A stretch of DNA of 64,000 bases from Eubacteriales bacterium (GTDB taxonomy: Bacteria > Bacillota > Clostridia > Oscillospirales > CAG-272): the NCBI GenBank assembly GCA_045632925.1, contig JAZQXP010000057.1, forward strand, positions 67,447 through 131,446, in the 5' to 3' direction. The translations under genes were made by a program, and so were the position numbers. Shown piece after piece: positions 21,109 through 62,775 of the stretch (position 1 is its first letter; each line of letters starts with the position of its first letter). Under the pieces are notes generated by a model that worked only from the letters and a program-made list of their open reading frames with translations, searched no databases and was not told the DNA's origin.

Positions 21109-23085
21109 ATGCTTGCAAGATTTATGCAAAACGAATACTCCCCCGTCCCCCGCATCGAAAAAAGGTGCGGGGCGGAGGACGTTTCATATCTCGGCGCATT
21201 TCCGTGTGGCGAGGTAATTGAAATTACCGCCCGGGTTCCGCGAGTGCTCGGCGTTACGTCGGTCTGTCTCTGCATCCGCAGAGATACACTTGCGCCGGCG
21301 GACGAAATGCTCGAAGGAGCGGCACATACGATCGATTTCGAGTATGTCTCGACCGATTACGTTAACGATGAATATAAGTTGAGCCTCGACACAGCCGCGC
21401 TTTGCGGAGAGTCGAATTCGGGGCTTTTTTACTATACATATGTTTTCCGCCAAGGCAAGGATGAACTCCTTGCAAGTGCTTGCGACAACGTGAATTTTAC
21501 GCTCGTGCGCGAAAATTGGAAGGAATTCCGCATGACCCTCTACTGCCCCGATTACCGCGTGCCCGCGTGGCTCGGCGGTGGTATTATGTACCATATCTTC
21601 CTCGACCGCTTTGCAAAGGGTGAAGGAAGGGTCAGCTATCGCGATGATGCCATCATCGACACTGATTGGGAGAACGGCGTGCCGCAGTATGCTGAATACC
21701 GCGGCGCAGAGGTCAAAAACAACCACTTTTTCGGCGGAAATCTATGGGGAATTATCGAAAAGCTCGACTATCTCGAGTCACTCGGTGTGAGCATTCTTTA
21801 TCTTTCGCCGATATTCGATGCTGTCAGCAACCATAAATACGACACCTCGGATTATATGAAGATCGCCGAGGAATTCGGAGGCGAGGAGGCGTTTGGAGCC
21901 CTCATCGAAGCCGCGCACGCGAGAGGGATGAAGATCATCCTCGACGGCGTTTTCAATCATACGGGAAGTGACAGCCGATATTTCGACGAATTCGGCAGAT
22001 ACGGTTTTTCCGCACGCGATGAGCAGTCGCTCTATCACTCTTGGTATGATTTCCACGCTCCCGAAAAGGAGGGCGCGCCCGATTATACAGCCTGGTGGGG
22101 CATCAGAATTCTGCCGAGGCTGAATACACATAAAGACGAATGCCGCGAGTTTTTCACGGGCGCGGGCGGCGTTGCCGAGCATTATATGCAAGCGGGCATC
22201 GACGGCTGGCGTCTTGACGTTGCCGACGAGCTTCCCGACAGATTTCTTGAGGAACTGCGAGAGAGGATACACTCGGTCAATTCTGAAAGTATTCTTATCG
22301 GCGAGGTCTGGGAAAATGCGGCTGACAAGATCGCGTACGGCAAGCGCCGCTCCTATTTCAGGGGCAAACAGCTCGACAGCGTTATGAATTATCCCACGCG
22401 CAAAGCGCTTCTTGACTTTGCCGAAAACGGCAACGGAAAGGCACTTGCGGCGGCTCTTACGGATCTTTATTCCTCTTATCCAAAGTCGGTTTCGGACAGC
22501 CTGATGAACCTTATAGGCACGCACGATACCGAGCGCGTGCTGACGTTGCTCGGAAATCCCGCGAAGGTGCGCGAGAATGCGTATGCATATAATGCGGTGC
22601 AGGAAAAACTGCGCCTGACCGACGAGGAGCACGCAAGAGGCGTGAAACTGCTCAAAATGATCTCGACTCTTCAGTTCACTCTCTTTGGTTTTCCGTGCAT
22701 TTATTACGGCGACGAGGCGGGTATGGAGGGTATGAGCGATCCCTTCTGCCGTTATCCATTTCCGTGGCATAATATAAATAAGGAAATAAACGATCATTAT
22801 AAAAAGCTCGGTGCGATTCGCCGAGGTGAGAAAATATTCGCGGGCGGTGAGTTTAGGATCACCAAGGCAAGCGGCGGATATTTTGAGTTTATAAGATATA
22901 AAAGGGACGAAAAGGAATATATCCTTATTGCCGTCAATGTGGCGGACAAGCCCATAAAAGTGCAGGCATCGAGCGGCATAAACCTCTATACGGGCAAGAG
23001 AGTGGTGGGAAATCCCTCGCTGAAGCAAGGTGAGTTCCTGATCGTCAAAAAGAAAGGAGACGTAAAAAATGGGATTCTGGAGTAA
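21109..23085 (+). CDS. GH13 alpha-amylase family enzyme (neopullulanase/amylopullulanase-like)
   Basis: GH13 conserved regions are present: DGVFNHT, GIDGWRLDVADEL, LIGEVWE, LIGTHDTER. The exact start is uncertain. Confidence 0.85.
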   Translation: MLARFMQNEYSPVPRIEKRCGAEDVSYLGAFPCGEVIEITARVPRVLGVTSVCLCIRRDTLAPADEMLEGAAHTIDFEYVSTDYVNDEYKLSLDTAALCGESNSGLFYYTYVFRQGKDELLASACDNVNFTLVRENWKEFRMTLYCPDYRVPAWLGGGIMYHIFLDRFAKGEGRVSYRDDAIIDTDWENGVPQYAEYRGAEVKNNHFFGGNLWGIIEKLDYLESLGVSILYLSPIFDAVSNHKYDTSDYMKIAEEFGGEEAFGALIEAAHARGMKIILDGVFNHTGSDSRYFDEFGRYGFSARDEQSLYHSWYDFHAPEKEGAPDYTAWWGIRILPRLNTHKDECREFFTGAGGVAEHYMQAGIDGWRLDVADELPDRFLEELRERIHSVNSESILIGEVWENAADKIAYGKRRSYFRGKQLDSVMNYPTRKALLDFAENGNGKALAAALTDLYSSYPKSVSDSLMNLIGTHDTERVLTLLGNPAKVRENAYAYNAVQEKLRLTDEEHARGVKLLKMISTLQFTLFGFPCIYYGDEAGMEGMSDPFCRYPFPWHNINKEINDHYKKLGAIRRGEKIFAGGEFRITKASGGYFEFIRYKRDEKEYILIAVNVADKPIKVQASSGINLYTGKRVVGNPSLKQGEFLIVKKKGDVKNGILE

Positions 23086-23416
23086 GGTCGTAGGGCATTG
23101 GACGAAGCCGAAGGACCCGAACAGCGTTCGCTTCCGCCGCGAAATGGCGGAGAAGATCGCGGGTCAGTATATCAAATACGTAACCGAGCGCATCAACAAC
23201 GTCGACGAGGTCATCGGACGCAAGGGCAGCCTTGCCATCCGCGAGGACGAATTCCTTGTTTTCGCCTCCGCCGATATCCTCTTCCGCTGCAAGATCGACG
23301 AACTCCGCGCAAGCGAGCTCCTTTCAAAGGACGGAGTAGTTTTAATTGGTCCTGACCTCGAACACGGCGGAGAAGAGAGAACGATTATTGCGTATTATGT
23401 ATATTATAGGAAGTGA
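23069..23416 (+). CDS. Small hypothetical protein overlapping the end of the GH13 gene
   Basis: 115 aa ORF with an AAAGGAGA RBS and a 17-nt overlap with the upstream gene, on the same strand as the operon. I recognise no family. Confidence 0.55.
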   Translation: MGFWSKVVGHWTKPKDPNSVRFRREMAEKIAGQYIKYVTERINNVDEVIGRKGSLAIREDEFLVFASADILFRCKIDELRASELLSKDGVVLIGPDLEHGGEERTIIAYYVYYRK

Positions 23417-23531
23417 TTCTGTCGGCTTCGCCGAATGATAGTCCGCCATTGGCGGAATGATGATCACGCTTCGCGTGAATGATGATCCGCTGAAGCGGAA
23501 TGAAGGAAGATTTTCGCCGAGGCGAAAATCT
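23417..23531 (+). repeat. Tandem mini-hairpin array: five hairpins separated by ATGATGA-type 7-nt linkers
   Basis: TCGGC-TTC-GCCGA, TCCGCC-ATT-GGCGGA, TCACGC-TTC-GCGTGA, TCCGC-TGAA-GCGGA and AGATTTTCGCC-GAG-GGCGAAAATCT are spaced 20-22 nt apart. The array starts 1 nt after the TGA stop. Confidence 0.85.
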
Positions 23532-23547
23532 CAATTATTGTAAAAAA

Positions 23548-23575
23548 GTCTCGTCTGAAAAGATGAGGCTTTTTA
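23548..23575 (+). terminator. Rho-independent terminator ending the glycogen operon transcript
   Basis: GTCTCGTC-TGAAAA-GATGAGGC pairs fully as plus-strand RNA if G-U wobbles are allowed. TTTTTA follows. Confidence 0.7.
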
Positions 23576-23639
23576 TAGTTATTATTGCCAAAATGGGGTA
23601 TATTGTTTTGTATAATTCGCTGAATTGTGTTCACAACTA

Positions 23640-23668
23640 TTGACAACGAGAGGATGATATGATATAAT
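23640..23668 (+). promoter_or_regulatory. Consensus sigma-A promoter for the 23702 gene
   Basis: TTGACA, a 17-nt spacer, then TATAAT, with TG at -15/-14. Confidence 0.8.
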
Positions 23669-23701
23669 ACAATCAAATGAACGCAAGAAAGGAATGCTGT
23701 T

Positions 23702-24232
23702 ATGACTAAACAAGAAAGAAGCCCCTATGTTAAATTGCTTATCGACCTGTTAAAGACCGTGATTTCCACTTTTCTGTTCTTTCTCCTTTCGAATAATCTT
23801 ATCCGCGCGATATTTGAGGATGAGCAGGACAGGAGTGTTATCAATCTTGCTCTGGTCATTTCAATCTACTTTTTCTATTTTGCCGCGTTTTATATAATGC
23901 ACGCAAGGAGAAGTATGGATGATTATTCGCTTAATATGGGCGACAGACAATATTGTCTCAAGGAAGATTTCAAGGAGATCGTTACGGGCGACGGAAAGAG
24001 GCTTGCGATAATTTACGCCGTTCTTGCCGTTATGATGGAACTGATCGCGCGTATCAAGGTCTTAAGAGCTCTCTCAGTCGCTTTTTTACCGGTGTTTCCG
24101 ATCTTTGCGATATCGGATTTTCCCGTGCTGATCGCGCTTATCGGATGGACGATCCTCACTGCCGGTTCAATTATAACCATCGTCTACAGCCACCACCGCG
24201 TACACGTACTTAAAGCAAAAGGAAAGCTGTAA
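23702..24232 (+). CDS. Hypothetical integral membrane protein
   Basis: 176 aa with about four hydrophobic segments. It has its own consensus promoter and terminator. Confidence 0.6.
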   Translation: MTKQERSPYVKLLIDLLKTVISTFLFFLLSNNLIRAIFEDEQDRSVINLALVISIYFFYFAAFYIMHARRSMDDYSLNMGDRQYCLKEDFKEIVTGDGKRLAIIYAVLAVMMELIARIKVLRALSVAFLPVFPIFAISDFPVLIALIGWTILTAGSIITIVYSHHRVHVLKAKGKL

Positions 24233-24237
24233 AATTG

Positions 24238-24273
24238 AAACGCCTCGTCCTTTCGGACGAGGCGTTTTTATTT
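24238..24273 (+). terminator. Rho-independent terminator, probably shared with the convergent minus-strand gene
   Basis: The 10-bp stem CGCCTCGTCC/GGACGAGGCG has a TTTC loop and is followed by TTTTTATTT. Confidence 0.88.
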
Positions 24274-24279
24274 AATGAT

Positions 24280-24338
24280 GATTTTCGCCTCAGCGAAAAT
24301 CTACCTTCATTTTGCATTTTGCATTTTTAATTTTGCAT
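24280..24338 (-). repeat. Heptamer tract (ATGCAAA-type on the minus strand) plus an A/T-clamped cap hairpin, directly after the FAD-oxidoreductase stop
   Basis: The minus strand reads TAA-ATAAATGCAAAATTAAAAATGCAAAATGCAAAATGAAGGTA-GATTTTCGC-TGAG-GCGAAAATC. The cap and its ATGAAGG lead-in closely match 23500-23531. Confidence 0.8.
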
Positions 24339-26216
24339 TTATTTAACGTCTGCCGAGAACAGATGAACCTTACTGCTTCCTCTTGTTTCATCAAATACGA
24401 TGGTGAGCTTCTGTGCCTTAACGCCGAGGGCGATCTTGCGCAGAGAATTACGGTTGTTGGTGTCGGCGAAGATCTCCTTGCCGTCTGCAAGAACGCGGAA
24501 GGATTTGACGAGAGTCTTTGCAACCTTTACGGGAACGAAATCCTTGCCCGTCATAAGCTTCTGCGCGAAGACGCGCATCTTCTTGTTGGGAGTGATCGAC
24601 TTGCGCGAGAAGTCGGGGTCGAAGACGAGACGAAGCTCGGAAAGCTCCTTTTCTTCACCAAAGTCAAACTCGAGCGCATCGCCGATCTCGAGCGTTGCGT
24701 AGTTGACGTTCATTTCCTCGTCGGGACGCTCGATGCCGTTCTGAAGAAGTGCAAGCTCGGATTCGGGGAGATTGATCTTCGCGCTCTTGGTGAGCTCGGG
24801 AATCTCGCGGACGGTGCCGGGGATATAGCAGCCCGCGTCGCGAAGCTTGTCCTGAAGGACCTTGATCTTCTGCTCGTAAACGCCGTGGGGAGTTACGCCG
24901 TCATTAATACAGATCGAAGCAGCGGTACCCATAGCCTGACCGATGAGGGCACAGGTTGCCATAACACGGGTCGAGCTCATTGCGGCGTGGGTCGCGCTGA
25001 TATTTCTACCCGCGAAGAAGAGGTTGTCAACCTCGTGACCGTAGAGCACGCGGTAGGGAATGCCGTAGGGCGAAGGAGCGGGATATAGCTTGGATGCGGG
25101 TGCGCCGCTGAGATAGGAACGGAAGCCCGCGGGGTTGTGGTCGTCCATCGGCCAACCGCCGTAAGCGACTATATCGTCAAACTTTCCGCCCGACTCGATG
25201 TCATTTTCGGTGAGAACGTGCGCGCCGATGTAGCGGCGGCTCTCTCTCTTACCGGGGATACAACCGACCCACTCGAGGGTCCAGTTGGTTGCGTTGTGGT
25301 CGCCGTAGTTCTTGACGTGATCCCAGATGCCGTACGCGATCTTGAGAAGCTCGTCGCGCATTTCCTCGGCATCGTGGATGCTGTCATACTCGCCGCCGAG
25401 CTCGAGCCACCAGAAGTTGGTCTCGCTTGTGCCGAGCTTGTGGGGACGTGCAAGGTACTTGACGTCCTGAACTTTAACGCCGGAAACGCCCGTGCTTGCA
25501 TCGATGATGTTGCCGCTTGCATCCTTGATAAGGTTGAAGTCGTCGTCGGTCTCGAATTTATATGCCCAATCGGGAGCGGTGAAGGGAACGGGCTCGTCGG
25601 TCTCGCGTGCCTGAATGAGGCAGGACATGCCCATGGTCTTTTTGTCTGCAACCTCCTTACCCATAGCCTCGCCGTACTCGGAAGCCGCCTCACGGCCGAC
25701 ACGCCACTTCGCGCCCGAGATGGGAGCGAGGATCGAGTCGCCCGAGCAGTCAGCAAAATAAGTAGCCTTTACGGTGTGCCAGGTGTAGGTCGTCATCTGC
25801 CAAGCGGTGACGGATGTGAGGTGCGACACGCCATCCTTCTCGGTGCGATCGGCGTCACAGCAGGTGGTGTTGAGAAGAAGGGTGATATTCTTCTCAGCCT
25901 TGACCTTCGCCCAGAGCACGTTGTCGAAGGTGGAGGGGATGAGGGTGGGGTTGAGGTAGATATTTTCCTCTTCGATCTCGGAGATGATACCCGTCTCGCG
26001 GTTCTCAAGACCGTGCGCGCCTCTGACCCACATTCTGATCTCGCTCGATGCGTTACCGCCGAGCACGGGTCTGTCCTGGATGAGGACGACCTTTGTGCCT
26101 TCTCTTGCAGCTGCGATAGCGGCACAGAGACCGGTAAGACCGCCGCCGATGATGCAGAGGTCGGTGTTATGTTCAATATGGCGCATGCCGTTTGTTTTAA
26201 TAGTAAGTTCGCTCAT
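24339..26216 (-). CDS. FAD-dependent oxidoreductase (FAD_oxidored family)
   Basis: The N-terminus DLCIIGGGLTGLCAAIAAAREG..LGGNASSE is a Rossmann FAD motif. 625 aa. An AAGGAG RBS is present. Confidence 0.85.
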   Translation of the reverse strand: MSELTIKTNGMRHIEHNTDLCIIGGGLTGLCAAIAAAREGTKVVLIQDRPVLGGNASSEIRMWVRGAHGLENRETGIISEIEEENIYLNPTLIPSTFDNVLWAKVKAEKNITLLLNTTCCDADRTEKDGVSHLTSVTAWQMTTYTWHTVKATYFADCSGDSILAPISGAKWRVGREAASEYGEAMGKEVADKKTMGMSCLIQARETDEPVPFTAPDWAYKFETDDDFNLIKDASGNIIDASTGVSGVKVQDVKYLARPHKLGTSETNFWWLELGGEYDSIHDAEEMRDELLKIAYGIWDHVKNYGDHNATNWTLEWVGCIPGKRESRRYIGAHVLTENDIESGGKFDDIVAYGGWPMDDHNPAGFRSYLSGAPASKLYPAPSPYGIPYRVLYGHEVDNLFFAGRNISATHAAMSSTRVMATCALIGQAMGTAASICINDGVTPHGVYEQKIKVLQDKLRDAGCYIPGTVREIPELTKSAKINLPESELALLQNGIERPDEEMNVNYATLEIGDALEFDFGEEKELSELRLVFDPDFSRKSITPNKKMRVFAQKLMTGKDFVPVKVAKTLVKSFRVLADGKEIFADTNNRNSLRKIALGVKAQKLTIVFDETRGSSKVHLFSADVK

Positions 26217-26229
26217 TTTGAAGCTCCTT

Positions 26230-27240
26230 TTAGTCCATGATAATGGTTACTTTGGTGTAGAATTCTTTTCTGTCGCGCATCATTTCGAGTGCTTCAACGC
26301 AACGCTCAAGGGGATAACGATGTGTGATAAGAGCCTCGTAGTCAATAAGATCGCCGTCAGCCATAGCCTTTGCGGTTTCCTCCCAGTCGTTGATCTGGCT
26401 GTTGTAGGAGGAATTCCAGGTTCCGCGGAGAGTGATCTCACGGCGAAGGATCTGTGAATATACGCTCTGTGTGATCGTCATATCGCGCGCGGGATTGCCC
26501 ATAAGGATGACTCTGCCGTGGGGCTTCATCGACTTGATAAGATTGCAGAGAGCCTGAGGAGCACCCGTACCCTCTATAGCGCAGTCGCAGAGACCGTCGC
26601 GCTCCTTGTCATATGCATCGAATCCGAACTTCTTCGCGAATGCGAGCTTTTCCTCGCTGATGTCGACAACGCGTACGACACCCGCGCCTGCCTTCTTTGC
26701 CCAAGCGGCGGCGATGAGTCCGATCGGTCCCGCACCCCAGATAACAACCGTGTCGCCGAGCTTTACCTCAAGGCGGCGTACAGCGGCACGAGCGACCGCA
26801 CCCGGCTCAACCAGCGATGCGCAAGCGTAGGAAAGATCGTCGGGAAGAAGAATAAGGTTTCGGATATCTACAGCAAGATATTCAGCAAACGCACCGTCGC
26901 GGCGCGATCCGTAGTAGTCGTAGTTTTCGCAGTTTGCAAACTCACCAAGCTCGCAGGGAGTGCATTTGCGGCAGGGAAGAAGGGGGAATACAGCCGCACG
27001 GCGTCCGATCAGGGACTTGTCGTCGGCTTCAACGATCTCGCCTGCAAATTCGTGTCCGGGGATAGTGGGGAAGTGATACGTGCCTTTCTCAAATACGCGG
27101 GGAATATCCGAGCCGCAAACGCCTGCCGCACGGATCTTGAGAAGCACCTCGCCCTCGCCTCTTTTCGGCATTGGAACGTCCTCGTAACGGAAGTCACCGA
27201 CAGCGTGGAGCACGCAGGCCTTCATGGTTTCATTGCTCAT
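26230..27240 (-). CDS. Zinc-dependent alcohol/polyol(-phosphate) dehydrogenase (galactitol-1-phosphate / sorbitol dehydrogenase-like)
   Basis: GVCGSDIP..GHEFAG is the catalytic zinc motif, and GAGPIGL is the NAD-binding motif. Confidence 0.9.
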   Translation of the reverse strand: MSNETMKACVLHAVGDFRYEDVPMPKRGEGEVLLKIRAAGVCGSDIPRVFEKGTYHFPTIPGHEFAGEIVEADDKSLIGRRAAVFPLLPCRKCTPCELGEFANCENYDYYGSRRDGAFAEYLAVDIRNLILLPDDLSYACASLVEPGAVARAAVRRLEVKLGDTVVIWGAGPIGLIAAAWAKKAGAGVVRVVDISEEKLAFAKKFGFDAYDKERDGLCDCAIEGTGAPQALCNLIKSMKPHGRVILMGNPARDMTITQSVYSQILRREITLRGTWNSSYNSQINDWEETAKAMADGDLIDYEALITHRYPLERCVEALEMMRDRKEFYTKVTIIMD

Positions 27241-27294
27241 TTTATGTTCTCCTTATCGGAATAAATTTCATCAAAATACAATATAATAAAATCC

Positions 27295-27437
27295 GTTTTT
27301 TCGGCGGCTTTGCCGCCAAAAAAACACCTTTTAGACGAGCCAAGCGAGTCCGCGCGCCGAGGGGAGCTGCCAAAATCTCTGATTTTGACAAGCGGCGATA
27401 AGCGCGCGTCTTCACTTGTAAAACGCAGTTTTACAAG
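27295..27437 (-). repeat. Cluster of A/T-clamped hairpins in the aldolase 3' region
   Basis: Three hairpins are present: CTTGTAAAAC-GCA-GTTTTACAAG (27415-27437), TGCCAAAATC-TCT-GATTTTGACA (27368-27390, complete only as minus-strand RNA via G-U) and TTTTTCGGCGGC-TTT-GCCGCCAAAAA (27295-27324). Confidence 0.65.
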
Positions 27438-44864: not shown

Positions 44865-45036
44865 TTGCGAGTCTGTAGGGGACGGCGCCCTCGACGTCCA
44901 ACTTTGCGAGAGTTATGATCGCGCAAAGCGCGAGTTAAGATCGGCTTGCGCCGAGTTAATATTGCCTTCGGCAAGTTAAGATTCGCCTGCGGCGAAGTTT
45001 AAGGTGAATTTCCTCGCTGAAGCTTCGGAAATTTTC
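44865..45036 (+). repeat. Tandem mini-hairpin array: GTTAAGA-type 7-nt linkers plus a cap hairpin
   Basis: The TTGCGAG direct repeat flanks GGACG..CGTCC. It is followed by TCGCGC-AAA-GCGCGA, TCGGC-TTGC-GCCGA, TTGCC-TTCG-GGCAA, TTCGCC-TGC-GGCGAA and AATTTCC-TCGCTGAAGCTTC-GGAAATT at 20-24 nt spacing. Confidence 0.85.
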
Positions 45037-45061
45037 AATTATTAATCAATACGCAGTCCTA

Positions 45062-55849: not shown

Positions 55850-55872
55850 GAAAGAAAAAACGGAGAATGGCA

Positions 55873-57480
55873 ATGAAAAAACATATCAGAATCCTGACAG
55901 CTTTAATATCCCTTTTGTTTATCCTTCCTCTGTTCGGCTGTACCGGCGGAGAAGGCGAAGTGACTTCAAGCACTCCCGATCCCGAAAATACACCACCTGC
56001 GGTCACCGATGCACCTGAGACCGATGCACCCGAGACCGTTGCACCCGAGACCGTTGCACCCGAGACAGACGCGCCCGAGACAGAGCCTGCAGAGGTTGTT
56101 GACGACGAGTGGACGGCTTTGAGAAAGAAGGCAGAGGGCGAGGGCATCAAGGTCCTCTTTATCGGCGACAGCCTGACTCATTATAACGATATGCCCGTGA
56201 TATTCGAGGCTCTGTGCCGCGCCGCAGGCAAGAAGGTCACCGCCGCCGCACAGACAAAGGGCGGCACGGGTATTGCGATGTACCGCGAGGATGCCGCGCT
56301 CTGGGAGACGTACAGCAAAAGGATCGCTTCGGATAATTGGGACATCATCATTTTTCAGCCCAACCGCAACAATACCGTTATGACCGAATTCTTCCCCTAC
56401 TATCCCTGGAAGGAATACTCCGCGGCAAAGGACGTCGTTGAGCTGATCAAGGCGGCGGGCGCGATTCCTCTTCAGTACTCGAGCTTCGGCGTGAACAAGG
56501 GATATGTTACCCGCGAAGGAAACACCAAGAGAATGTCCAGAATCGAGCATACGAATCTTGTAACCGCATATAATGCAGCAGTTTCCGAAATGCTCGGAAC
56601 CAAGGCTGTTTACGTCGGCGCAACCTTCAATAAGGTCATCGACGAGCATCCGGGCTACGGAATGTATCATACCGACAATTCGCATCCCTCGGCTACGGGA
56701 AGCTATCTTATCGCGTCGGATTTCTATACCGTGATCTTTGGCGAGGCACCCGTAGACGTTGATTTCACCAACGGACTTGACGCCGAAATTGCAAAGACGC
56801 TCCGTGAAGCCTCCGCAATGCTTCTTGATTACGCTCCCACCGAGAAGGCTGAGATCAAGTACGTCGAGGAGGAAAAGAAGGAGAAGGGCACTCTTACCTT
56901 CGGTTCACACGGCTTTACGGGCATTGCCGCAGAGGGAAAGAGCGGAATGTTTGACGTCACCGAGGACAACAAGACCATCAGCTATACCTACAAGAGCGGC
57001 GACGGCATCATATATTCCTTTGCAACTCTCGACGGAAAGCCCGTCTCGGGAAACAGCCTGATCTTTGAGGCTGACGTTACGATCGGAAAGTATTGCGGAA
57101 GCAAAAACCCGACCGCGGGACTTCAGCTTATCGACGAAAAGGGCAAGACCTACCGCCTCTACCTGCGTACTGCGGGCGGAAACATCACGGGTACGGACAG
57201 CTCGACCGCAACCTTCCATATCCGCACAGACCACGACAGCAGTAAGACGCGTACCGATCTCGGAAGCTTCTCGAATAAGGTCAAGCTTCGCCTCGAGGTC
57301 ACACCCGACTCTATGACCCTCTATACCGACGGTCAGATGTATATGAAGATCACTTATGAGGGCACCGAATTCTTTGACGGCACCAAGACCGACAAGATGA
57401 CCTACGACGGCTCCGACGTTCAGCTCGGACTCGTAACCTGCTATGCGGATACGAGATTCGATAACGTGGTGATTAATTAA
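55873..57480 (+). CDS. Lipoprotein with an SGNH/GDSL hydrolase domain and a C-terminal lectin-like domain
   Basis: The lipobox is LFGC. An (APETx)5 linker follows, then the GDSL block VLFIGDSLT. The C-terminal beta-sandwich-like region is unassigned. Confidence 0.75.
   Translation: MKKHIRILTALISLLFILPLFGCTGGEGEVTSSTPDPENTPPAVTDAPETDAPETVAPETVAPETDAPETEPAEVVDDEWTALRKKAEGEGIKVLFIGDSLTHYNDMPVIFEALCRAAGKKVTAAAQTKGGTGIAMYREDAALWETYSKRIASDNWDIIIFQPNRNNTVMTEFFPYYPWKEYSAAKDVVELIKAAGAIPLQYSSFGVNKGYVTREGNTKRMSRIEHTNLVTAYNAAVSEMLGTKAVYVGATFNKVIDEHPGYGMYHTDNSHPSATGSYLIASDFYTVIFGEAPVDVDFTNGLDAEIAKTLREASAMLLDYAPTEKAEIKYVEEEKKEKGTLTFGSHGFTGIAAEGKSGMFDVTEDNKTISYTYKSGDGIIYSFATLDGKPVSGNSLIFEADVTIGKYCGSKNPTAGLQLIDEKGKTYRLYLRTAGGNITGTDSSTATFHIRTDHDSSKTRTDLGSFSNKVKLRLEVTPDSMTLYTDGQMYMKITYEGTEFFDGTKTDKMTYDGSDVQLGLVTCYADTRFDNVVIN
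56011..56085 (+). repeat. Five tandem 15-bp coding repeats (APETD/V linker)
   Basis: GCACC(T/C)GAGACCG(A/T)T repeats five times with drift, in frame within the lipoprotein gene. Confidence 0.9.
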
Positions 57481-57788
57481 GTGCAGAGTGTAGAGTGTAG
57501 AATGCAGAGTTAATGTAATTTTTCTCGCGATGCTCGAAAAATATTTGTGGGATAATTTAATTTGGCACTGATAACACTTCGCTTAGCTATAACATTTAAT
57601 AGCTAAACAAATAACTCGGAAATCAATGAAGATTACTTCAAAGATTTCCGAGCATTTTTTATTTACCAAATTTATTGTTTATCGCAAAACAATAGTTTGC
57701 CAAAGCAAAACATAATTCTTTAACTTCTAATTTCCGAGCTCGCTCGGAAATTATCCTCAACTCTGCATTATGCACTCTGCACTCTGCA
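57481..57788 (+). repeat. Repeat element copy A: inverted heptamer ends plus cap hairpins around an A+T-rich core with a terminator
   Basis: The left end is GTGCAGA GTGTAGA GTGTAGA ATGCAGA GTT plus the hairpin TTTTTC-TCGCGATGCTC-GAAAAA. The right end is the hairpin AATTTCCGAG-CTCG-CTCGGAAATT plus inverted heptamers at 57761-57788. It starts at the first base after the TAA stop. Confidence 0.85.
57615..57660 (+). terminator. Terminator inside element A
   Basis: The stem CTCGGAAATC/GATTTCCGAG is followed by CATTTTTTATTT. Confidence 0.8.
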
Positions 57789-57914
57789 TTTAATTACTCT
57801 CTCCGTCAATTAATCGCAAAAAATCTCCATTTAAGAAAATCTTAATTCGTTTAGCTATTTCTTTTTCATAAAAAGTGTGGTATAATGTACTTAATAAACC
57901 ACAGGAGCGTTAAA

Positions 57915-60565: not shown

Positions 60566-61387
60566 ATGAATGTTCTTGACAAAATGATGAATGCAATAGC
60601 GGCGGAAATGACTCCGCCGCCGGCATACGGTACCTTTCATATAATTCTGATCATCGTCGGTATGACCCTCTGCATTTCGCTTGCTTGGCTCTGTCGAAAA
60701 TTCGACGACAGAAAGAATAAGATCCTGCTGCTTTCCTTCGCGGGCGTTCTGATCGTGAGCGAGATCTTCAAGCAGATCTTCCTCTTTTTCGTTGTCGAGG
60801 AGAACGCGATCTGCTGGGGCGAGTTCCCCTTTCAGATGTGCTCGATGCCGATGTATCTTTGCCCCGTCGCGGTATTGTCGAAGAATGAAAGGATCAGCCG
60901 CGCGGCTTACGGCTTTATGATGTGCTTCAATCTGCTCGGCGGATTTGCGGGCGTTTTTGAGCCCTCGGGAGTCTTTCTCACGCAGGTGCCGCTGACCGTC
61001 CACGCGATCGCTTGGCATTATTCGCTCGTCTTCCTCGCGTTTTACATAATCTTCTCGCACCGCGCGGGAAGCACGAAGCGGGATTATTTCGATATCGTCA
61101 AGCTCTTTGTTGCGCTCTGCTTCGTTGCATTCGTGATCAATACCCTGATCGGTATTACGGTCGGCGCAGAGGTCAATATGTTCTTCGTCGGACCGAATCC
61201 CGCGCCGATAATAGTTTTCAATACGATCGCGCAAAAATTCGGCTGGGCGGCGAGCACGGTGATCTATATACCGATAACCTCGCTTGCGGCGGGAGTGATA
61301 TTTTTGATAAATGCAAAATGCAGAATGCAGAGGGCAGAGGGAGTGCAGAGTGCAGAGTGCAGAGTGCAGAATGCAGAGTTAAGGTAA
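60566..61387 (+). CDS. Polytopic membrane protein (YwaF/TIGR02206-like) whose last roughly 25 codons are the heptamer repeat
   Basis: It has about 7 TM segments. The C-terminus reads KCRMQRAEGVQSAECRVQSAECRVQNAELR, which is translated from the TGCAGAG repeats. Confidence 0.65.
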   Translation: MNVLDKMMNAIAAEMTPPPAYGTFHIILIIVGMTLCISLAWLCRKFDDRKNKILLLSFAGVLIVSEIFKQIFLFFVVEENAICWGEFPFQMCSMPMYLCPVAVLSKNERISRAAYGFMMCFNLLGGFAGVFEPSGVFLTQVPLTVHAIAWHYSLVFLAFYIIFSHRAGSTKRDYFDIVKLFVALCFVAFVINTLIGITVGAEVNMFFVGPNPAPIIVFNTIAQKFGWAASTVIYIPITSLAAGVIFLINAKCRMQRAEGVQSAECRVQNAELR

Positions 61388-61652
61388 ATTTCCTCGCGAT
61401 GCTCGGAAATTGTTCCTTATGATAATTGTATTTCTGCATGATAACCTTTTGTACTGTTCTGAACCGTTGTTTAATAATAAGAAACTCGAGATATAATGAA
61501 GTTTTTTACGCTTCACTGTATCTCGAGTTTTCTATTTGGTTTTTATATGTTTTAGATTAACTAAGGATTATCAGCACAAAATATATTTATTTCGGTATGC
61601 TTTTCGAACAAAGTTCGAAAAGCTTCCATAACTCTGCATTCTGCACTCTGCA
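61309..61652 (+). repeat. Repeat element copy B, homologous to copy A
   Basis: About 10 heptamers (AATGCA.. drifting to TGCAGAG) are followed by AGTTAAGGTA and the hairpin AATTTCC-TCGCGATGCTC-GGAAATT. Next comes a core similar to copy A, then the hairpin CTTTTCGAAC-AAA-GTTCGAAAAG and inverted heptamers at 61632-61652. Confidence 0.85.
61482..61537. terminator. Bidirectional terminator inside element B, serving 60566-61387 and glcK
   Basis: The stem CTCGAGATA/TATCTCGAG has T-rich tails on both strands. Confidence 0.75.
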
Positions 61653-61664
61653 CTCCCTTCGCCT

Positions 61665-62621
61665 TTAACCCAAAAGCGCTGCTCCGATAATTCCCGCTTC
61701 GTTTCCGAGGGTCGCGATGCGGATCTCTGTCGGACGGACGATACCGTTGCCGTAGGTCTCCGCTCTTACCAGGGGAACGAGGGGAGTGAGGAGATTGTCC
61801 TTCTCGTTCGAGATGCCGCCGCCGATAGAAAGGACCTCGGGCTGGAAGATGTTGATAATATTGATAATGCCGCAAGCGAGGTGCTTTATGTAGGAATCAA
61901 CGACCTCTTTTGCCGCCGCGTCGCCTGCGCGCATAGCGTCAAAGGACGTGCGTCCCGATACCTTGCCGCGCTCTGCTGCCATATCCGACATAAGTGTGTT
62001 GATGCCCTTTTCCTTGCATTCGGCGATCTTTTCCTCGGTCATCTTGACAAGAGCCGTTGCAGAGCTGTAAGCCTCCCAGCATCCTTTTCTTCCGCAGGAG
62101 CAGGGTCTGCCGTCGCAAACGATAACGATATGTCCGAGCTCGGCGCCCGCATAGTTAAAGCCGGAATAGATCTTGTCATCTATAACGATGCCGCCTCCGA
62201 CACCCGTACCGAGCGTGATCATGATCGAGCTCTTCGAGCCCTTTGCCGCTCCGACCTTAGCCTCGCCCCAAGCTGCGGCATTGGCGTCGTTTTCAATGGT
62301 TACCTTCGGAACGGGGAATCCCTCCTTGAACTTATCAGCAAGGGGGAAGTTACGGAAGGGAAGGTTATTGGCGTATTCAACTACTCCCGTGTCGTGGTTT
62401 GCAACGCCGGGGCTGGCAATACCTACAGCCTCGATCTCGTCGATGGAGATCTCTGCGTTTTTGATCAGATCGTGGCAAAGCTTTGCCATATCCGCAACGA
62501 TCTCGTCTGCGGGTCTGTGCGCACCCGTGGGAATGCTCTGACGGGAAAGAATAGTTCCTTCATTATTTACAATACCTGCGGCAATATTTGTACCGCCAAG
62601 GTCAACACCGACTCTGTACAT
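61665..62621 (-). CDS. glcK: ROK-family glucokinase
   Basis: VGVDLGGTNIAAG..ENDANAAAWGE..CSCGRKGCWEAY are the ROK zinc-motif sequences. Confidence 0.9.
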   Translation of the reverse strand: MYRVGVDLGGTNIAAGIVNNEGTILSRQSIPTGAHRPADEIVADMAKLCHDLIKNAEISIDEIEAVGIASPGVANHDTGVVEYANNLPFRNFPLADKFKEGFPVPKVTIENDANAAAWGEAKVGAAKGSKSSIMITLGTGVGGGIVIDDKIYSGFNYAGAELGHIVIVCDGRPCSCGRKGCWEAYSSATALVKMTEEKIAECKEKGINTLMSDMAAERGKVSGRTSFDAMRAGDAAAKEVVDSYIKHLACGIINIINIFQPEVLSIGGGISNEKDNLLTPLVPLVRAETYGNGIVRPTEIRIATLGNEAGIIGAALLG

Positions 62622-62686: not shown

Positions 62687-62710
62687 CCGAATTTCTATTT
62701 TTTTAATTGA

Positions 62711-62772
62711 TTTTCTCGCATCGCGATAAAAACTACCTTACTTCTTACCTCTTACCTTTTACCTCTTACCTC
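62711..62772 (-). repeat. Heptamer tract (GAGGTAA-type on the minus strand) plus cap hairpin, directly after the J-protein stop
   Basis: The minus strand reads TGA-TGC-GAGGTAA GAGGTAA AAGGTAA GAGGTAA GAAGTAA GGTAG-TTTTATCGC-GAT-GCGAGAAAA. Confidence 0.85.
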
Positions 62773-62775
62773 GCA

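Follow-up and report, generated by a model that had tools for sequence, protein, structure and literature searches.

The 64-kb window analysed here, a stretch of contig JAZQXP010000057.1 of a Eubacteriales bacterium, carries an array of small hairpins at 23417–23531, between the stop codon of a 115-aa open reading frame (ORF) and the terminator of a glycogen operon. This array belongs to a dispersed, modular, lineage-restricted repeat family with a conserved end module. Each element comprises a variable number n of units, which are bare heptamers or heptamer linkers joined to a GC mini-hairpin of 13–16 nt; behind them come a terminal linker with the AAGG motif and a conserved hairpin, T-rich in its 5′ arm and A-rich in its 3′ arm. 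The window holds at least eight such elements, about one per 8 kb, namely two hairpin arrays and six heptamer-type elements, all ending in the module xxxAAGGxA plus T-rich/A-rich hairpin. The element is not specific to the glycogen-operon locus, at which the preliminary description reported it; some copies of the family lie in divergent promoter regions or inside operons. Moreover, the family turns over rapidly, through gain, loss, change of unit number and swap of type, and the pairing of its hairpins is maintained. We give about an even chance to the interpretation that the array is one copy of an intergenic repeat whose DNA turns over in the manner of repetitive extragenic palindromes (REPs) and bacterial interspersed mosaic elements (BIMEs), and which is carried in 3′ untranslated regions (UTRs) as a hairpin cluster.

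The element begins immediately 3′ of the TGA (23414–23416) that closes the 115-aa ORF (23069–23416), and all of its parts are given on the plus strand. After TTCTG, four perfect mini-hairpins follow with a period of 20–22 nt. Unit 1 (23422–23434, TCGGC ttc GCCGA) is kept in every type-1 orthologue and is joined by the linker ATGATAG (23435–23441) to unit 2 (23442–23456, TCCGCC att GGCGGA), for which orthologues have TCTGCC/GGCAGA, changed on both sides. The loop of unit 2 is ATT, not ATTG as first reported. Two ATGATGA linkers (23457–23463 and 23479–23485) enclose unit 3 (23464–23478, TCACGC ttc GCGTGA), which contains GCGAAGC on the opposite strand, and unit 4 (23486–23499, TCCGC tgaa GCGGA) comes next. 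The terminal linker ATGAAGGAA (23500–23508), with a Shine-Dalgarno-like AAGG motif conserved in the family, then leads into a longer core hairpin of 9–10 bp, GATTTTCGC(C) (c)gag (G)GCGAAAATC (23509–23530), a module that recurs at 24280–24310 (minus strand) and at about 25 MAG (metagenome-assembled genome) loci. Finally, the post-core motif TCAATTATTG (23531–23540), common to the second array of the window (45035–45043) and to orthologues, precedes the canonical intrinsic terminator of the operon (23543–23574), a flank outside the repeat. The preliminary description was therefore right about evenly spaced hairpins with ATGATGA-type linkers between a TGA and a terminator; of its five variable hairpins, four are perfect mini-hairpins, but the fifth is the conserved end module of the family.

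The real terminator does come only after the array, as proposed. The four mini-hairpins have no T run after them and so lack the combination of GC stem and direct U tract of an intrinsic terminator. A terminator scan also listed the core hairpin (23508–23531), whose tail CAATTATTGT has no T run, and within 23417–23574 only 23543–23574 is convincing as a terminator. Because the array lies 5′ of it, the array should lie in the 3′ UTR at the glycogen-operon locus.

The second hairpin array of the window (44912–45043, plus strand), first flagged by Tandem Repeats Finder at 44933–44999, has four units with GTTAAGA-type linkers. Units 1 and 2 read GTTATGA TCGCGC/aaa/GCGCGA GTTAAGA TCGGC/ttgc/GCCGA, and units 3 and 4 read GTTAATA TTGCC/ttc/GGCAA GTTAAGA TTCGCC/tgc/GGCGAA. 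They are followed by GTTTAAGGTGAA, a T-rich/A-rich core hairpin TTTCC-TC-GC..GC-TTC-GGAAA (45009–45031, plus strand) and TTTTCAATTATT, the closing motif also found after the first array. This array occupies a divergent intergenic region, between a minus-strand rhamnosidase gene and a plus-strand ORF with its own promoter, and thus not a 3′ UTR. Just 5′ of it, GTAGGGGACGGCGCCCTCGACGTCC at 44875–44899 (plus strand) resembles a GTAG-tagged hairpin; a classical GTAG-tagged REP was rejected here, the sequence being single-copy in the window and without enrichment.

We parsed 101 units from 24 arrays, of which 83 are perfect. Their stems follow the pattern T-Y-N-S-S-C ... G-S-S-N-R-A. The earlier statement that every stem is different yet complementary is correct as to perfect pairing, but the stems come from a recurring repertoire of 32 types, including TCGGC (14 units), TCTGCC (10), TCCGCC (9), TTTGCC (9) and TCACGC (8). 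Sense-strand loops are TTC in 47, TGC in 24 and TAC in 7 units (77% TNC), with TTAC, TTGC and TAAC in addition. Read on the opposite strand, the loops are GAA (47), GCA (24), GTA (7), GTAA (4), GCAA (3) and GTTA (1), that is, GNA in 78 and GNNA in 8 units, all closed by C-G (86 of 101 in total), and several units contain GCGAAGC itself on that strand. Among imperfect units the most frequent, TCTCGC.ttc.GCTCGA (10 copies), contains a TC/TC internal loop, shared by the type-2 cores (TTTCC-TC-GC...GC-TC-GGAAA), and this loop becomes a tandem G.A mismatch (5′-GA-3′/3′-AG-5′) on the opposite strand only. Single mismatches on the sense strand (three G.T, three A.C) give no strand signal from wobble. 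If the asymmetry of loops and mismatches points anywhere, it is to the opposite strand.

Nearly all linkers begin with ATG, GTG or GTT. The near-invariance first described for them applies within an array, where they are uniform, but across the family they fall into types (ATGATGA, GTTAAGA, GTGATAA, ATGGTTA) that vary by lineage: L097 and L128 use GTGATAA, and L047, L057 and L118 use ATGATGA or ATGATAG. The AAGG motif 5′ of the core is invariant. All units of one array share their orientation, with TNC loops and linkers on the same strand, and adjacent identical units in L103, L118 and L057 indicate recent unit duplication.

Chance does not explain the array. Runs of at least four evenly spaced perfect GC hairpins occur in the window only here (five) and at 44919–44996 (four), and 100 Markov-simulated windows gave zero such runs and 0.02 runs of three per window. 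Folded as single-stranded DNA (ssDNA), the four-unit part forms exactly the four local hairpins on either strand (z = −4.4 and −3.7), and the array with its terminator folded as RNA gives z = −5.5 and −6.3. Nearest-neighbour folding, for both DNA and RNA, favours neither strand.

Relatives of the array exist elsewhere, as the covariance-model search suggested at the outset shows, and the array is thus not unique to its locus. The model comprised a linker, a 6-bp/3-nt hairpin and a second linker. In the window it matched only the two hairpin arrays, with unit 3 as the best match (E = 5.5e-9). On 100 genome loci it gave 26 matches at E ≤ 0.01; every one fell in a family locus, and about 80 unrelated control loci had none. 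Hairpin chains numbered 15 in family loci (250 kb) but 3, all irregular, in controls (662 kb). A one-genome-per-species scan with ATGAAGGWAGATTTTCG returned 118 loci, mostly chance matches in unrelated taxa. Complete type-1 cores with their 3′ arm numbered 28: two in the window, two in the metagenome contigs L001 and L002, and 24 in genomes or metagenome-assembled genomes (MAGs). The genome loci with a complete core come nearly all from MAGs labelled as uncultured Clostridia, Eubacteriales or Clostridiales, mostly of ruminant gut, and one MAG carries four copies. Upstream of the cores are hairpin arrays (ATGATGA, ATGATAG, ATGGTTA or GTGATAA linkers) or heptamer repeats (in other genomes ATGCGAA, ATGCAAA, AATGAAT and others), and in many cases the core, or a true terminator, is followed by a further array in inverted orientation. 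Copies within operons occupy the atpG-atpD and gyrB-gyrA gaps.

A scan of Joint Genome Institute metagenomes added 8 loci; viral contigs and plasmid and phage collections held no family copies. The 115-aa protein has more than 1000 relatives, one source of which is named as Ruminococcaceae/Oscillospiraceae, and the host of the family is probably a lineage of uncultured gut Clostridia in the Oscillospiraceae/Ruminococcaceae. No Rfam model matched anywhere in the window at gathering thresholds, and a search of 23300–24400 at E ≤ 10 returned only sub-threshold chance matches (FtrB, box C/D small RNAs, CRISPR-DR20, tmRNA). Likewise, we found no paper in the open-access literature that describes such a layout. 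The impression that the array fits no described element class is thereby upheld, and the repeat family is apparently undescribed.

To follow the element through time, we compared orthologous sites. Three further metagenome contigs (L001, L002 and L003) encode an identical 115-aa protein. The flanks of L001 are 95–97% identical to the window, and between the stop codon and the T-tract of the terminator both L001 and L002 have a GTTAAGA-type array, whose end hairpin acts as the terminator. In L001 a type-2 core plus TTTTCTTTTT forms this terminator, and the one seen in the window is absent. L003 is of the ATGATGA type and has TCTGCC/GGCAGA in place of TCCGCC/GGCGGA. At the neighbouring site, behind the stop of the convergent FAD-oxidoreductase gene, L001 has a four-hairpin ATGATGA array where the window has ATGCAAA-type heptamers, and in both the array is followed by ATGAAGGTA GATTTTCG...CGAAAATC. 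Hairpin units and bare heptamers in front of one end module indicate that the two are interchangeable.

The number of hairpins after the 115-aa gene changes between strains, which answers the comparison initially called for. Five units are present in L130/L131 and L132/L133/L135, four in the window, L047 and L097, and two in L144; there are none in L134, where a plain terminator follows the stop, nor in any of the relatives whose 115-aa protein is 64–73% identical. Unit number or array type varies among contigs with flanks 85–97% identical. In L134 the whole intergenic segment is replaced, so this is neither a clean excision nor a clean insertion. A side-by-side view of L134 (878–960) and L132 (638–800), which encode the same 115-aa protein (P0002), shows only a different terminator in the former and a five-unit array, core and terminator in the latter, a contrast that points to mosaic recombination of intergenic segments within the species.

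Pairing was examined in an alignment of the type-1 arrays after the 115-aa gene from the window, L003, L047 and L097, which comprises 23 pairs and 84 cells. All 84 cells are paired; six pairs differ at both positions, one-sided changes are absent, and slid controls were 24–43% paired. At this site 26 of 27 hairpins are perfect, and the remaining one has a C.A at the loop-closing pair. Divergence at fourfold sites is about 0.30 between the window and L047 and 0.37–0.40 between the window and L097, at which unconstrained stems of 5–6 bp would have lost perfect pairing. Substitutions at homologous loci thus keep pairing, as the preliminary description anticipated. However, its conclusion that the stems are under selection on RNA or ssDNA structure follows less directly, because template switching perfects palindromes in one step, with apparently compensatory changes (PMC8794818); the same pattern arises either way, and compensatory change is no proof of selection on RNA.

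Regarding position, we classified 47 cores with crude gene calls. A gene of the same sense ends upstream of 36 of the 47 (17 in convergent gaps, 14 in co-directional gaps and 5 without a downstream call); co-directional gaps contain 14 sense against 5 antisense cores, and 3 of the 47 cores lie in divergent gaps. Arrays typically start 0–5 nt after a stop codon and point to the terminator. In the window, GC skew is positive throughout and the elements divide evenly between the strands, four on each, including an opposed pair 1 kb apart, which indicates that orientation follows the neighbouring gene or terminator and not the replication strand.

Under the interpretation that we favour, the repeat would spread and turn over at the DNA level by duplication and deletion of units, replacement of whole arrays and 7-nt slippage, and hairpin-templated correction would keep the two arms complementary. 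The mRNA would carry the element as a cluster of stable hairpins, because most copies are preceded by a stop codon and followed by a terminator or another cistron. By analogy with REPs and with the 3′-UTR stem-loops of Clostridium, such a cluster might be a barrier to 3′-to-5′ exonucleases and a helper of 3′-end formation. Proposed roles of REPs include termination, supercoiling and the stabilisation of mRNA 3′ ends (PMC2817692, PMC3733652). In Clostridium operons, 3′-UTR stem-loops set transcript stability (PMC8219983, PMC4423207), and clusters of hairpins are on record no more than 80 nt from stop codons (PMC8355165).

Several points weigh against this interpretation. Transcription through the array is predicted from the position of the terminator, and the gain from additional hairpins is unclear, since the terminator hairpin already protects the 3′ end. 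Copies A2, L024 and L053 lie in divergent regions and face gene starts. G.U intermediates show no excess over A.C intermediates on the sense strand (3 vs 3), and the loop bias, together with the recurrent TC/TC loop, would make the opposite strand the better folder, which may suit action at the DNA level or in antisense more than a role as sense RNA. Neither a transposase nor another trans-acting gene turned up in the 64-kb window or in genome fragments of 1–8 kb. Furthermore, L134 encodes a 94%-identical 115-aa protein and has no array, so any function is dispensable at this locus.

The last observation, together with the missing one-sided intermediates, would be explained by an origin in template switching and slippage. 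The array could be a mutational by-product of heptamer slippage and template-switch palindromes, with neither function nor dedicated enzyme, in which the units with the most stable DNA mini-hairpins are preferentially duplicated and persist in tolerant intergenic DNA near terminators; we consider this possible but on the unlikely side. Heptamers are the commonest long simple-sequence repeat in bacteria and are ascribed to polymerase slippage (Mrazek 2007, as relayed in PMC4679880), and template switching both makes and maintains perfect stems in one step (PMC8794818). The array is missing, or its unit number variable, between close relatives, heptamers extend into a coding tail (61311–61387), and the opposite-strand GNA and GNNA loops correspond to an extraordinarily stable mini-hairpin DNA motif (PMC13037366, PMC3201870). 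Random slippage, however, would not produce an end module of about 30 nt (xTGAAGGxAGATTTTCGC..GCGAAAATC) that is conserved across many loci and genomes. Linker types are also concerted within arrays and lineages although the stems differ, orientation is biased towards upstream genes, and four units were kept at one site over a synonymous divergence of 0.3–0.4.

Rather improbable, in our view, is that the family forms the cis part of a hitherto undescribed system, in which a trans-acting partner works on it much as in REP-RAYT or TIGR-Tas (tandem interspaced guide RNA). The partner, an enzyme or a protein that binds RNA, would recognise the 7-nt linkers together with the AAGG-core module, and would add, remove or process units near stop codons. 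If so, the lineage-specific linkers would reflect co-evolution, and the family would be a new class of array-forming element in Oscillospirales instead of a passive repeat.

Alternatively, the element might be read as ssDNA, in which case the active strand would be the one opposite the mRNA. Here an HUH/Y1 enzyme (RAYT or IS200/IS605 type) or another ssDNA-binding enzyme would copy, move or homogenise arrays of C-GNA-G mini-hairpins and tandem G.A, as in REP-RAYT, a proposal that we regard as improbable. The opposite-strand loop bias described above agrees with it, as do the TCTCGC.ttc.GCTCGA unit and the type-2 cores, which give tandem G.A mismatches on that strand only. Lineage-specific linker types would be expected if a trans-acting reader co-evolved, the palindromic, MITE-like (miniature inverted-repeat transposable element) composites described below have paralogous copies, and REP termini also commonly abut or supply stop codons (PMC3733652). 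Yet the GTAG/CGTC tag that defines REPs (PMC3733652) is absent, the units are half the size of a REP, and stem sequence is unconserved. Moreover, no Y1 transposase was seen among the genome fragments examined, orientation tracks the neighbouring gene instead of the replication strand, and nearest-neighbour DNA folding prefers neither strand.

A dedicated cis- or trans-acting RNA is very unlikely. In that case the linkers (AUGAUGA, GUUAAGA) and AAGG would be binding or processing sites, merely presented by the hairpins, and the transcript would be a sponge or a precursor of small hairpin RNAs. The layout recalls CsrB/RsmZ-type sponges and the processed arrays of ToxI. It likewise recalls processed TIGR arrays (PMC12045711), and the linkers are more uniform than the stems within an array, nearly always begin with AUG, GUG or GUU, and are joined by an invariant AAGG 5′ of the core. 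Against these features, linkers differ between arrays of one genome (ATGATGA and GTTAAGA in the window), and the repeated unit of heptamer-type members varies widely (ATGCGAA, GTGCAGA, GTTGCTA, GAGGTAA). Hundreds of copies are implied at unrelated genes with no partner gene adjoining any, the array is dispensable in L134, and box C/D and CRISPR models score far below threshold.

Finally, a unique, locus-specific structured 3′ UTR of the glycogen operon can practically be dismissed: the array does lie between the last ORF of the glgB-C-D-A-P operon and the operon terminator, but dispersed copies with equal architecture at many unrelated genes refute the idea, and the site is empty in L134 and in the relatives with a 64–73% identical 115-aa protein. 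The genes upstream are glgB, glgC, glgD, glgA, a phosphorylase gene and one for an amylase-family enzyme. The 115-aa ORF, previously named as the last of the operon, overlaps the amylase-family gene as expected of an operon member, but matches no recognisable family.

We compared the family with known repeat systems. BIMEs are REP arrays joined by conserved short linkers, as in the hairpin family. Like REPs, the family consists of high-copy, extragenic, GC-rich palindromes in arrays (here 101 hairpin units in 24 arrays), which lie at gene 3′ ends and in convergent gaps, often abut stop codons and vary in copy number among strains (PMC2817692, PMC3733652). Its units, however, measure 13–16 nt against 20–40 nt for REPs, and it lacks the GTAG/CGTC tag (PMC3733652), with ATGATGA, ATGATAG, GTGATAA, GTTAAGA or ATGGTTA as flanks. 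Stems vary from unit to unit, whereas a REP is one conserved palindrome, and units of an array are co-oriented, whereas REPs alternate within BIMEs. The conserved end hairpin and the alternative bare-heptamer form are also particular to the family, no RAYT gene is known for it, and its host is a Firmicute of the Clostridia, a group in which the REP survey lists none (PMC3733652). REP/BIME is accordingly the closest known class, although the family departs from it in tag, single palindrome and alternating orientation.

The BOX element of Streptococcus pneumoniae, with the order boxA-boxB(n)-boxC, is a dispersed intergenic repeat with a stable predicted fold, is co-transcribed with its neighbours, and has sequence-conserved units of about 45 nt. 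It resembles the family in its variable number of internal tandem units and its conserved end modules, but it has neither 7-nt periodicity nor covarying mini-hairpins, and no sequence similarity to the family. Heptanucleotide repeats, namely long simple sequence repeats (LSSRs), cyanobacterial short tandemly repeated repetitive sequences (STRRs) and the TAACTGA repeat of Beggiatoaceae, are likewise abundant head-to-tail intergenic 7-nt units that are homogeneous within an array (PMC4679880). TAACTGA, however, is one fixed heptamer that lies mostly just upstream of start codons (PMC4679880), whereas in the family the heptamer varies by array, follows stops, ends in a hairpin module and may alternate with mini-hairpins.

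At the level of the single unit, the mini-hairpin DNAs d(GCGNAGC) and d(GCGNNAGC) match the C-GNA-G and C-GNNA-G loops opposite the mRNA strand (PMC13037366, PMC3201870). Their natural examples differ in being single hairpins at priming sites and at the phage N4 promoter, and arrays with heptamer linkers are not described in these two papers. The 3′-UTR stem-loops of selective RNA processing and stabilisation operons, and hairpin-cluster terminators, are similar in being stable hairpins up to about 80 nt past the stop, including between Clostridium cistrons (PMC4423207, PMC8219983, PMC8355165), and differ in being unrelated and locus-specific, with no shared linkers or end module. Comparison with MITEs concerns the composites of about 330–360 bp, which are inverted-symmetric and paralogous but have no clear target-site duplication and no transposase.

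Other identities were rejected. A known RNA family is not supported, since the Rfam matches are all sub-threshold. ATGATGA fits box C (RUGAUGA) of a box C/D or K-turn RNA, but a D box (CUGA) is not consistently present, CTGA occurring only once; the linker is GTTAAGA or GTGATAA in other arrays, a Nop or L7Ae context is lacking, and Rfam C/D models score 10–18 bits against thresholds of 38–54. TIGR arrays have alternating edge and loop repeats, two non-complementary 9-nt spacers and 36-nt units (PMC12045711), and TIGR-Tas was excluded by units of 20–22 nt, self-complementary variable parts and the lack of an adjacent Nop-domain (Tas) gene. The ORFs flanking the arrays of the window gave no Pfam or NCBIfam match to the Nop domain, and no cas genes flank the array. 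CRISPR repeats measure 24–48 nt and alternate with unique spacers that are not palindromic; here the conserved part is only 7–11 nt, the variable parts are two arms of one hairpin, cas genes are missing, and CRISPR-DR20 reaches 17 bits against a threshold of 42.

ToxI-type arrays consist of direct repeats of 34–52 nt, a terminator and then a gene for a toxin endoribonuclease. Such an antitoxin was rejected because the units here are 20–22 nt and dispersed at unrelated genes, and the next gene has its own consensus promoter (23640–23668) and matches no toxin family. Integron attC sites are ruled out by unit size, self-complementary variable parts and missing partner genes, and a small ORF or repeat peptide by a period of 20–22 nt that is no multiple of 3 and by frames that are inconsistent among copies. 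A double-stranded operator for a dimeric protein was rejected, as was already argued in the preliminary description, because stem sequences differ and loop lengths vary. Iterons, centromere sites and GATC/SeqA spacing were set aside, GATC occurring only at some linker-stem junctions, as was a promoter in the core plus AATTAT motif, which has no usable −35 and whose transcript would begin inside the terminator.

The six heptamer-type members of the window follow the same plan. Head-to-tail 7-nt tandem repeats were found at 24311–24338, 57481–57508, 61311–61380 and 62742–62775; in the array at 23417–23531, the heptamers are kept apart by intervening hairpins. The member at 24280–24338 (minus strand) adjoins the FAD-oxidoreductase stop and reads ATGCAAA ATTAAAA ATGCAAA ATGCAAA, then ATGAAGGTA, then GATTTTCGC tgag GCGAAAATC. 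Another, with five GAGGTAA-type heptamers and the core hairpin (62709–62775, minus strand), adjoins the stop of a DnaJ-domain ORF. The remaining four are arms of two palindromic composites of about 330–360 bp, at 57478–57800 and 61305–61668. In the first, the left arm (57481–57541, plus strand) has four GTGCAGA/GTGTAGA heptamers and the core hairpin, and the right arm (57725–57795, minus strand) faces the promoter of a response-regulator gene. In the second, ten ATGCAGA/GTGCAGA heptamers and an GTTAAGGTAAATTTCCTCGC..GCTCGGAAA core (61311–61409, plus strand) are opposed by a right arm after the stop of a ROK-family gene (61598–61660, minus strand).

Each composite is composed of a heptamer array, a core hairpin, a spacer with GATAAT..TGATAAC, a central terminator hairpin and the mirror image of these parts. 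The two align over their full length in both orientations and, from their sequences, look like a duplicated MITE-like palindromic unit with paralogous copies, although neither a clear target-site duplication nor a transposase was seen for them, and exact-protein look-ups for the genes beside them returned no record. Pairs of inverted elements often flank one terminator in family loci. In MAG RGIG9562 (L047, 5386–5690), the arrays after the 115-aa and FAD-oxidoreductase genes face each other across a single terminator. In the window (23417–24340), L001 and L130–L133, a 176-aa ORF with its own consensus promoter lies between the arrays or after the array, and this gene either entered a composite or dropped out of one. 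In the window the ORF (23702–24232, plus strand) is driven by a TTGACA-17-TATAAT promoter that is perfect and has a TG extension. It falls into no Pfam family, and its sole NCBIfam similarity, to the SbmA membrane domain, is far below threshold.

The heptamer array at 61311–61387 (plus strand) is in frame with a TMEM164-family ORF (60566–61387), whose C-terminal tail ..NAKCRMQRAEGVQSAECRVQNAELR* takes 27 residues from heptamers and whose stop lies inside the GTTAAGGTAA of the element; either the repeat captured the gene end, or the tail is a frameshift or assembly artefact. A core-like module without an array, TCTAAAAGGTG TTTTTTTGGCGG caaa GCCGCCGAAAAAAC and then GGATTTTATTATATTG, occurs at 27290–27345 (minus strand), about 70 nt upstream of the start of the minus-strand ORF 26230–27240. 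About 80 nt of conserved sequence (..TGTCAAAATCagaGATTTTGGCA..GCTCCCCTCGGCGCGCGGACTCGC..) lead up to the module, which is kept in four genomes (window, L001, L043 and L047) without an Rfam match, and could be an orphan family core or a leader/attenuator. Separately, a 15-nt tandem repeat, ACCGATGCACCCGAG, with 5.1 copies and 90% matches, lies at 56005–56081 (plus strand) inside the ORF 55867–57480, a weak DUF4886 match, and would encode a 5-residue peptide repeat.

For sequence analysis in general, the family illustrates that covarying hairpins with conserved linkers can signal a repeat family instead of a dedicated riboregulator. It probably causes breaks between contigs and, where heptamers are translated as the tail of a protein, mis-called gene ends, and it could serve as a hypervariable marker for strain typing in metagenomes. 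It also offers a natural experiment bearing on what keeps the stems perfect, selection or template switching. Small dispersed repeats, among them REP, BIME, BOX and MITEs, influence genome plasticity as well as mRNA stability, termination and supercoiling, and are known almost only from cultured Proteobacteria and a few Firmicutes. Collectively, our results indicate an abundant repeat system proper to a major group of uncultured gut and rumen Clostridia, with what appears to be an unusual grammar of 7-nt units, optional mini-hairpins predicted to be hyperstable, and a conserved end hairpin.

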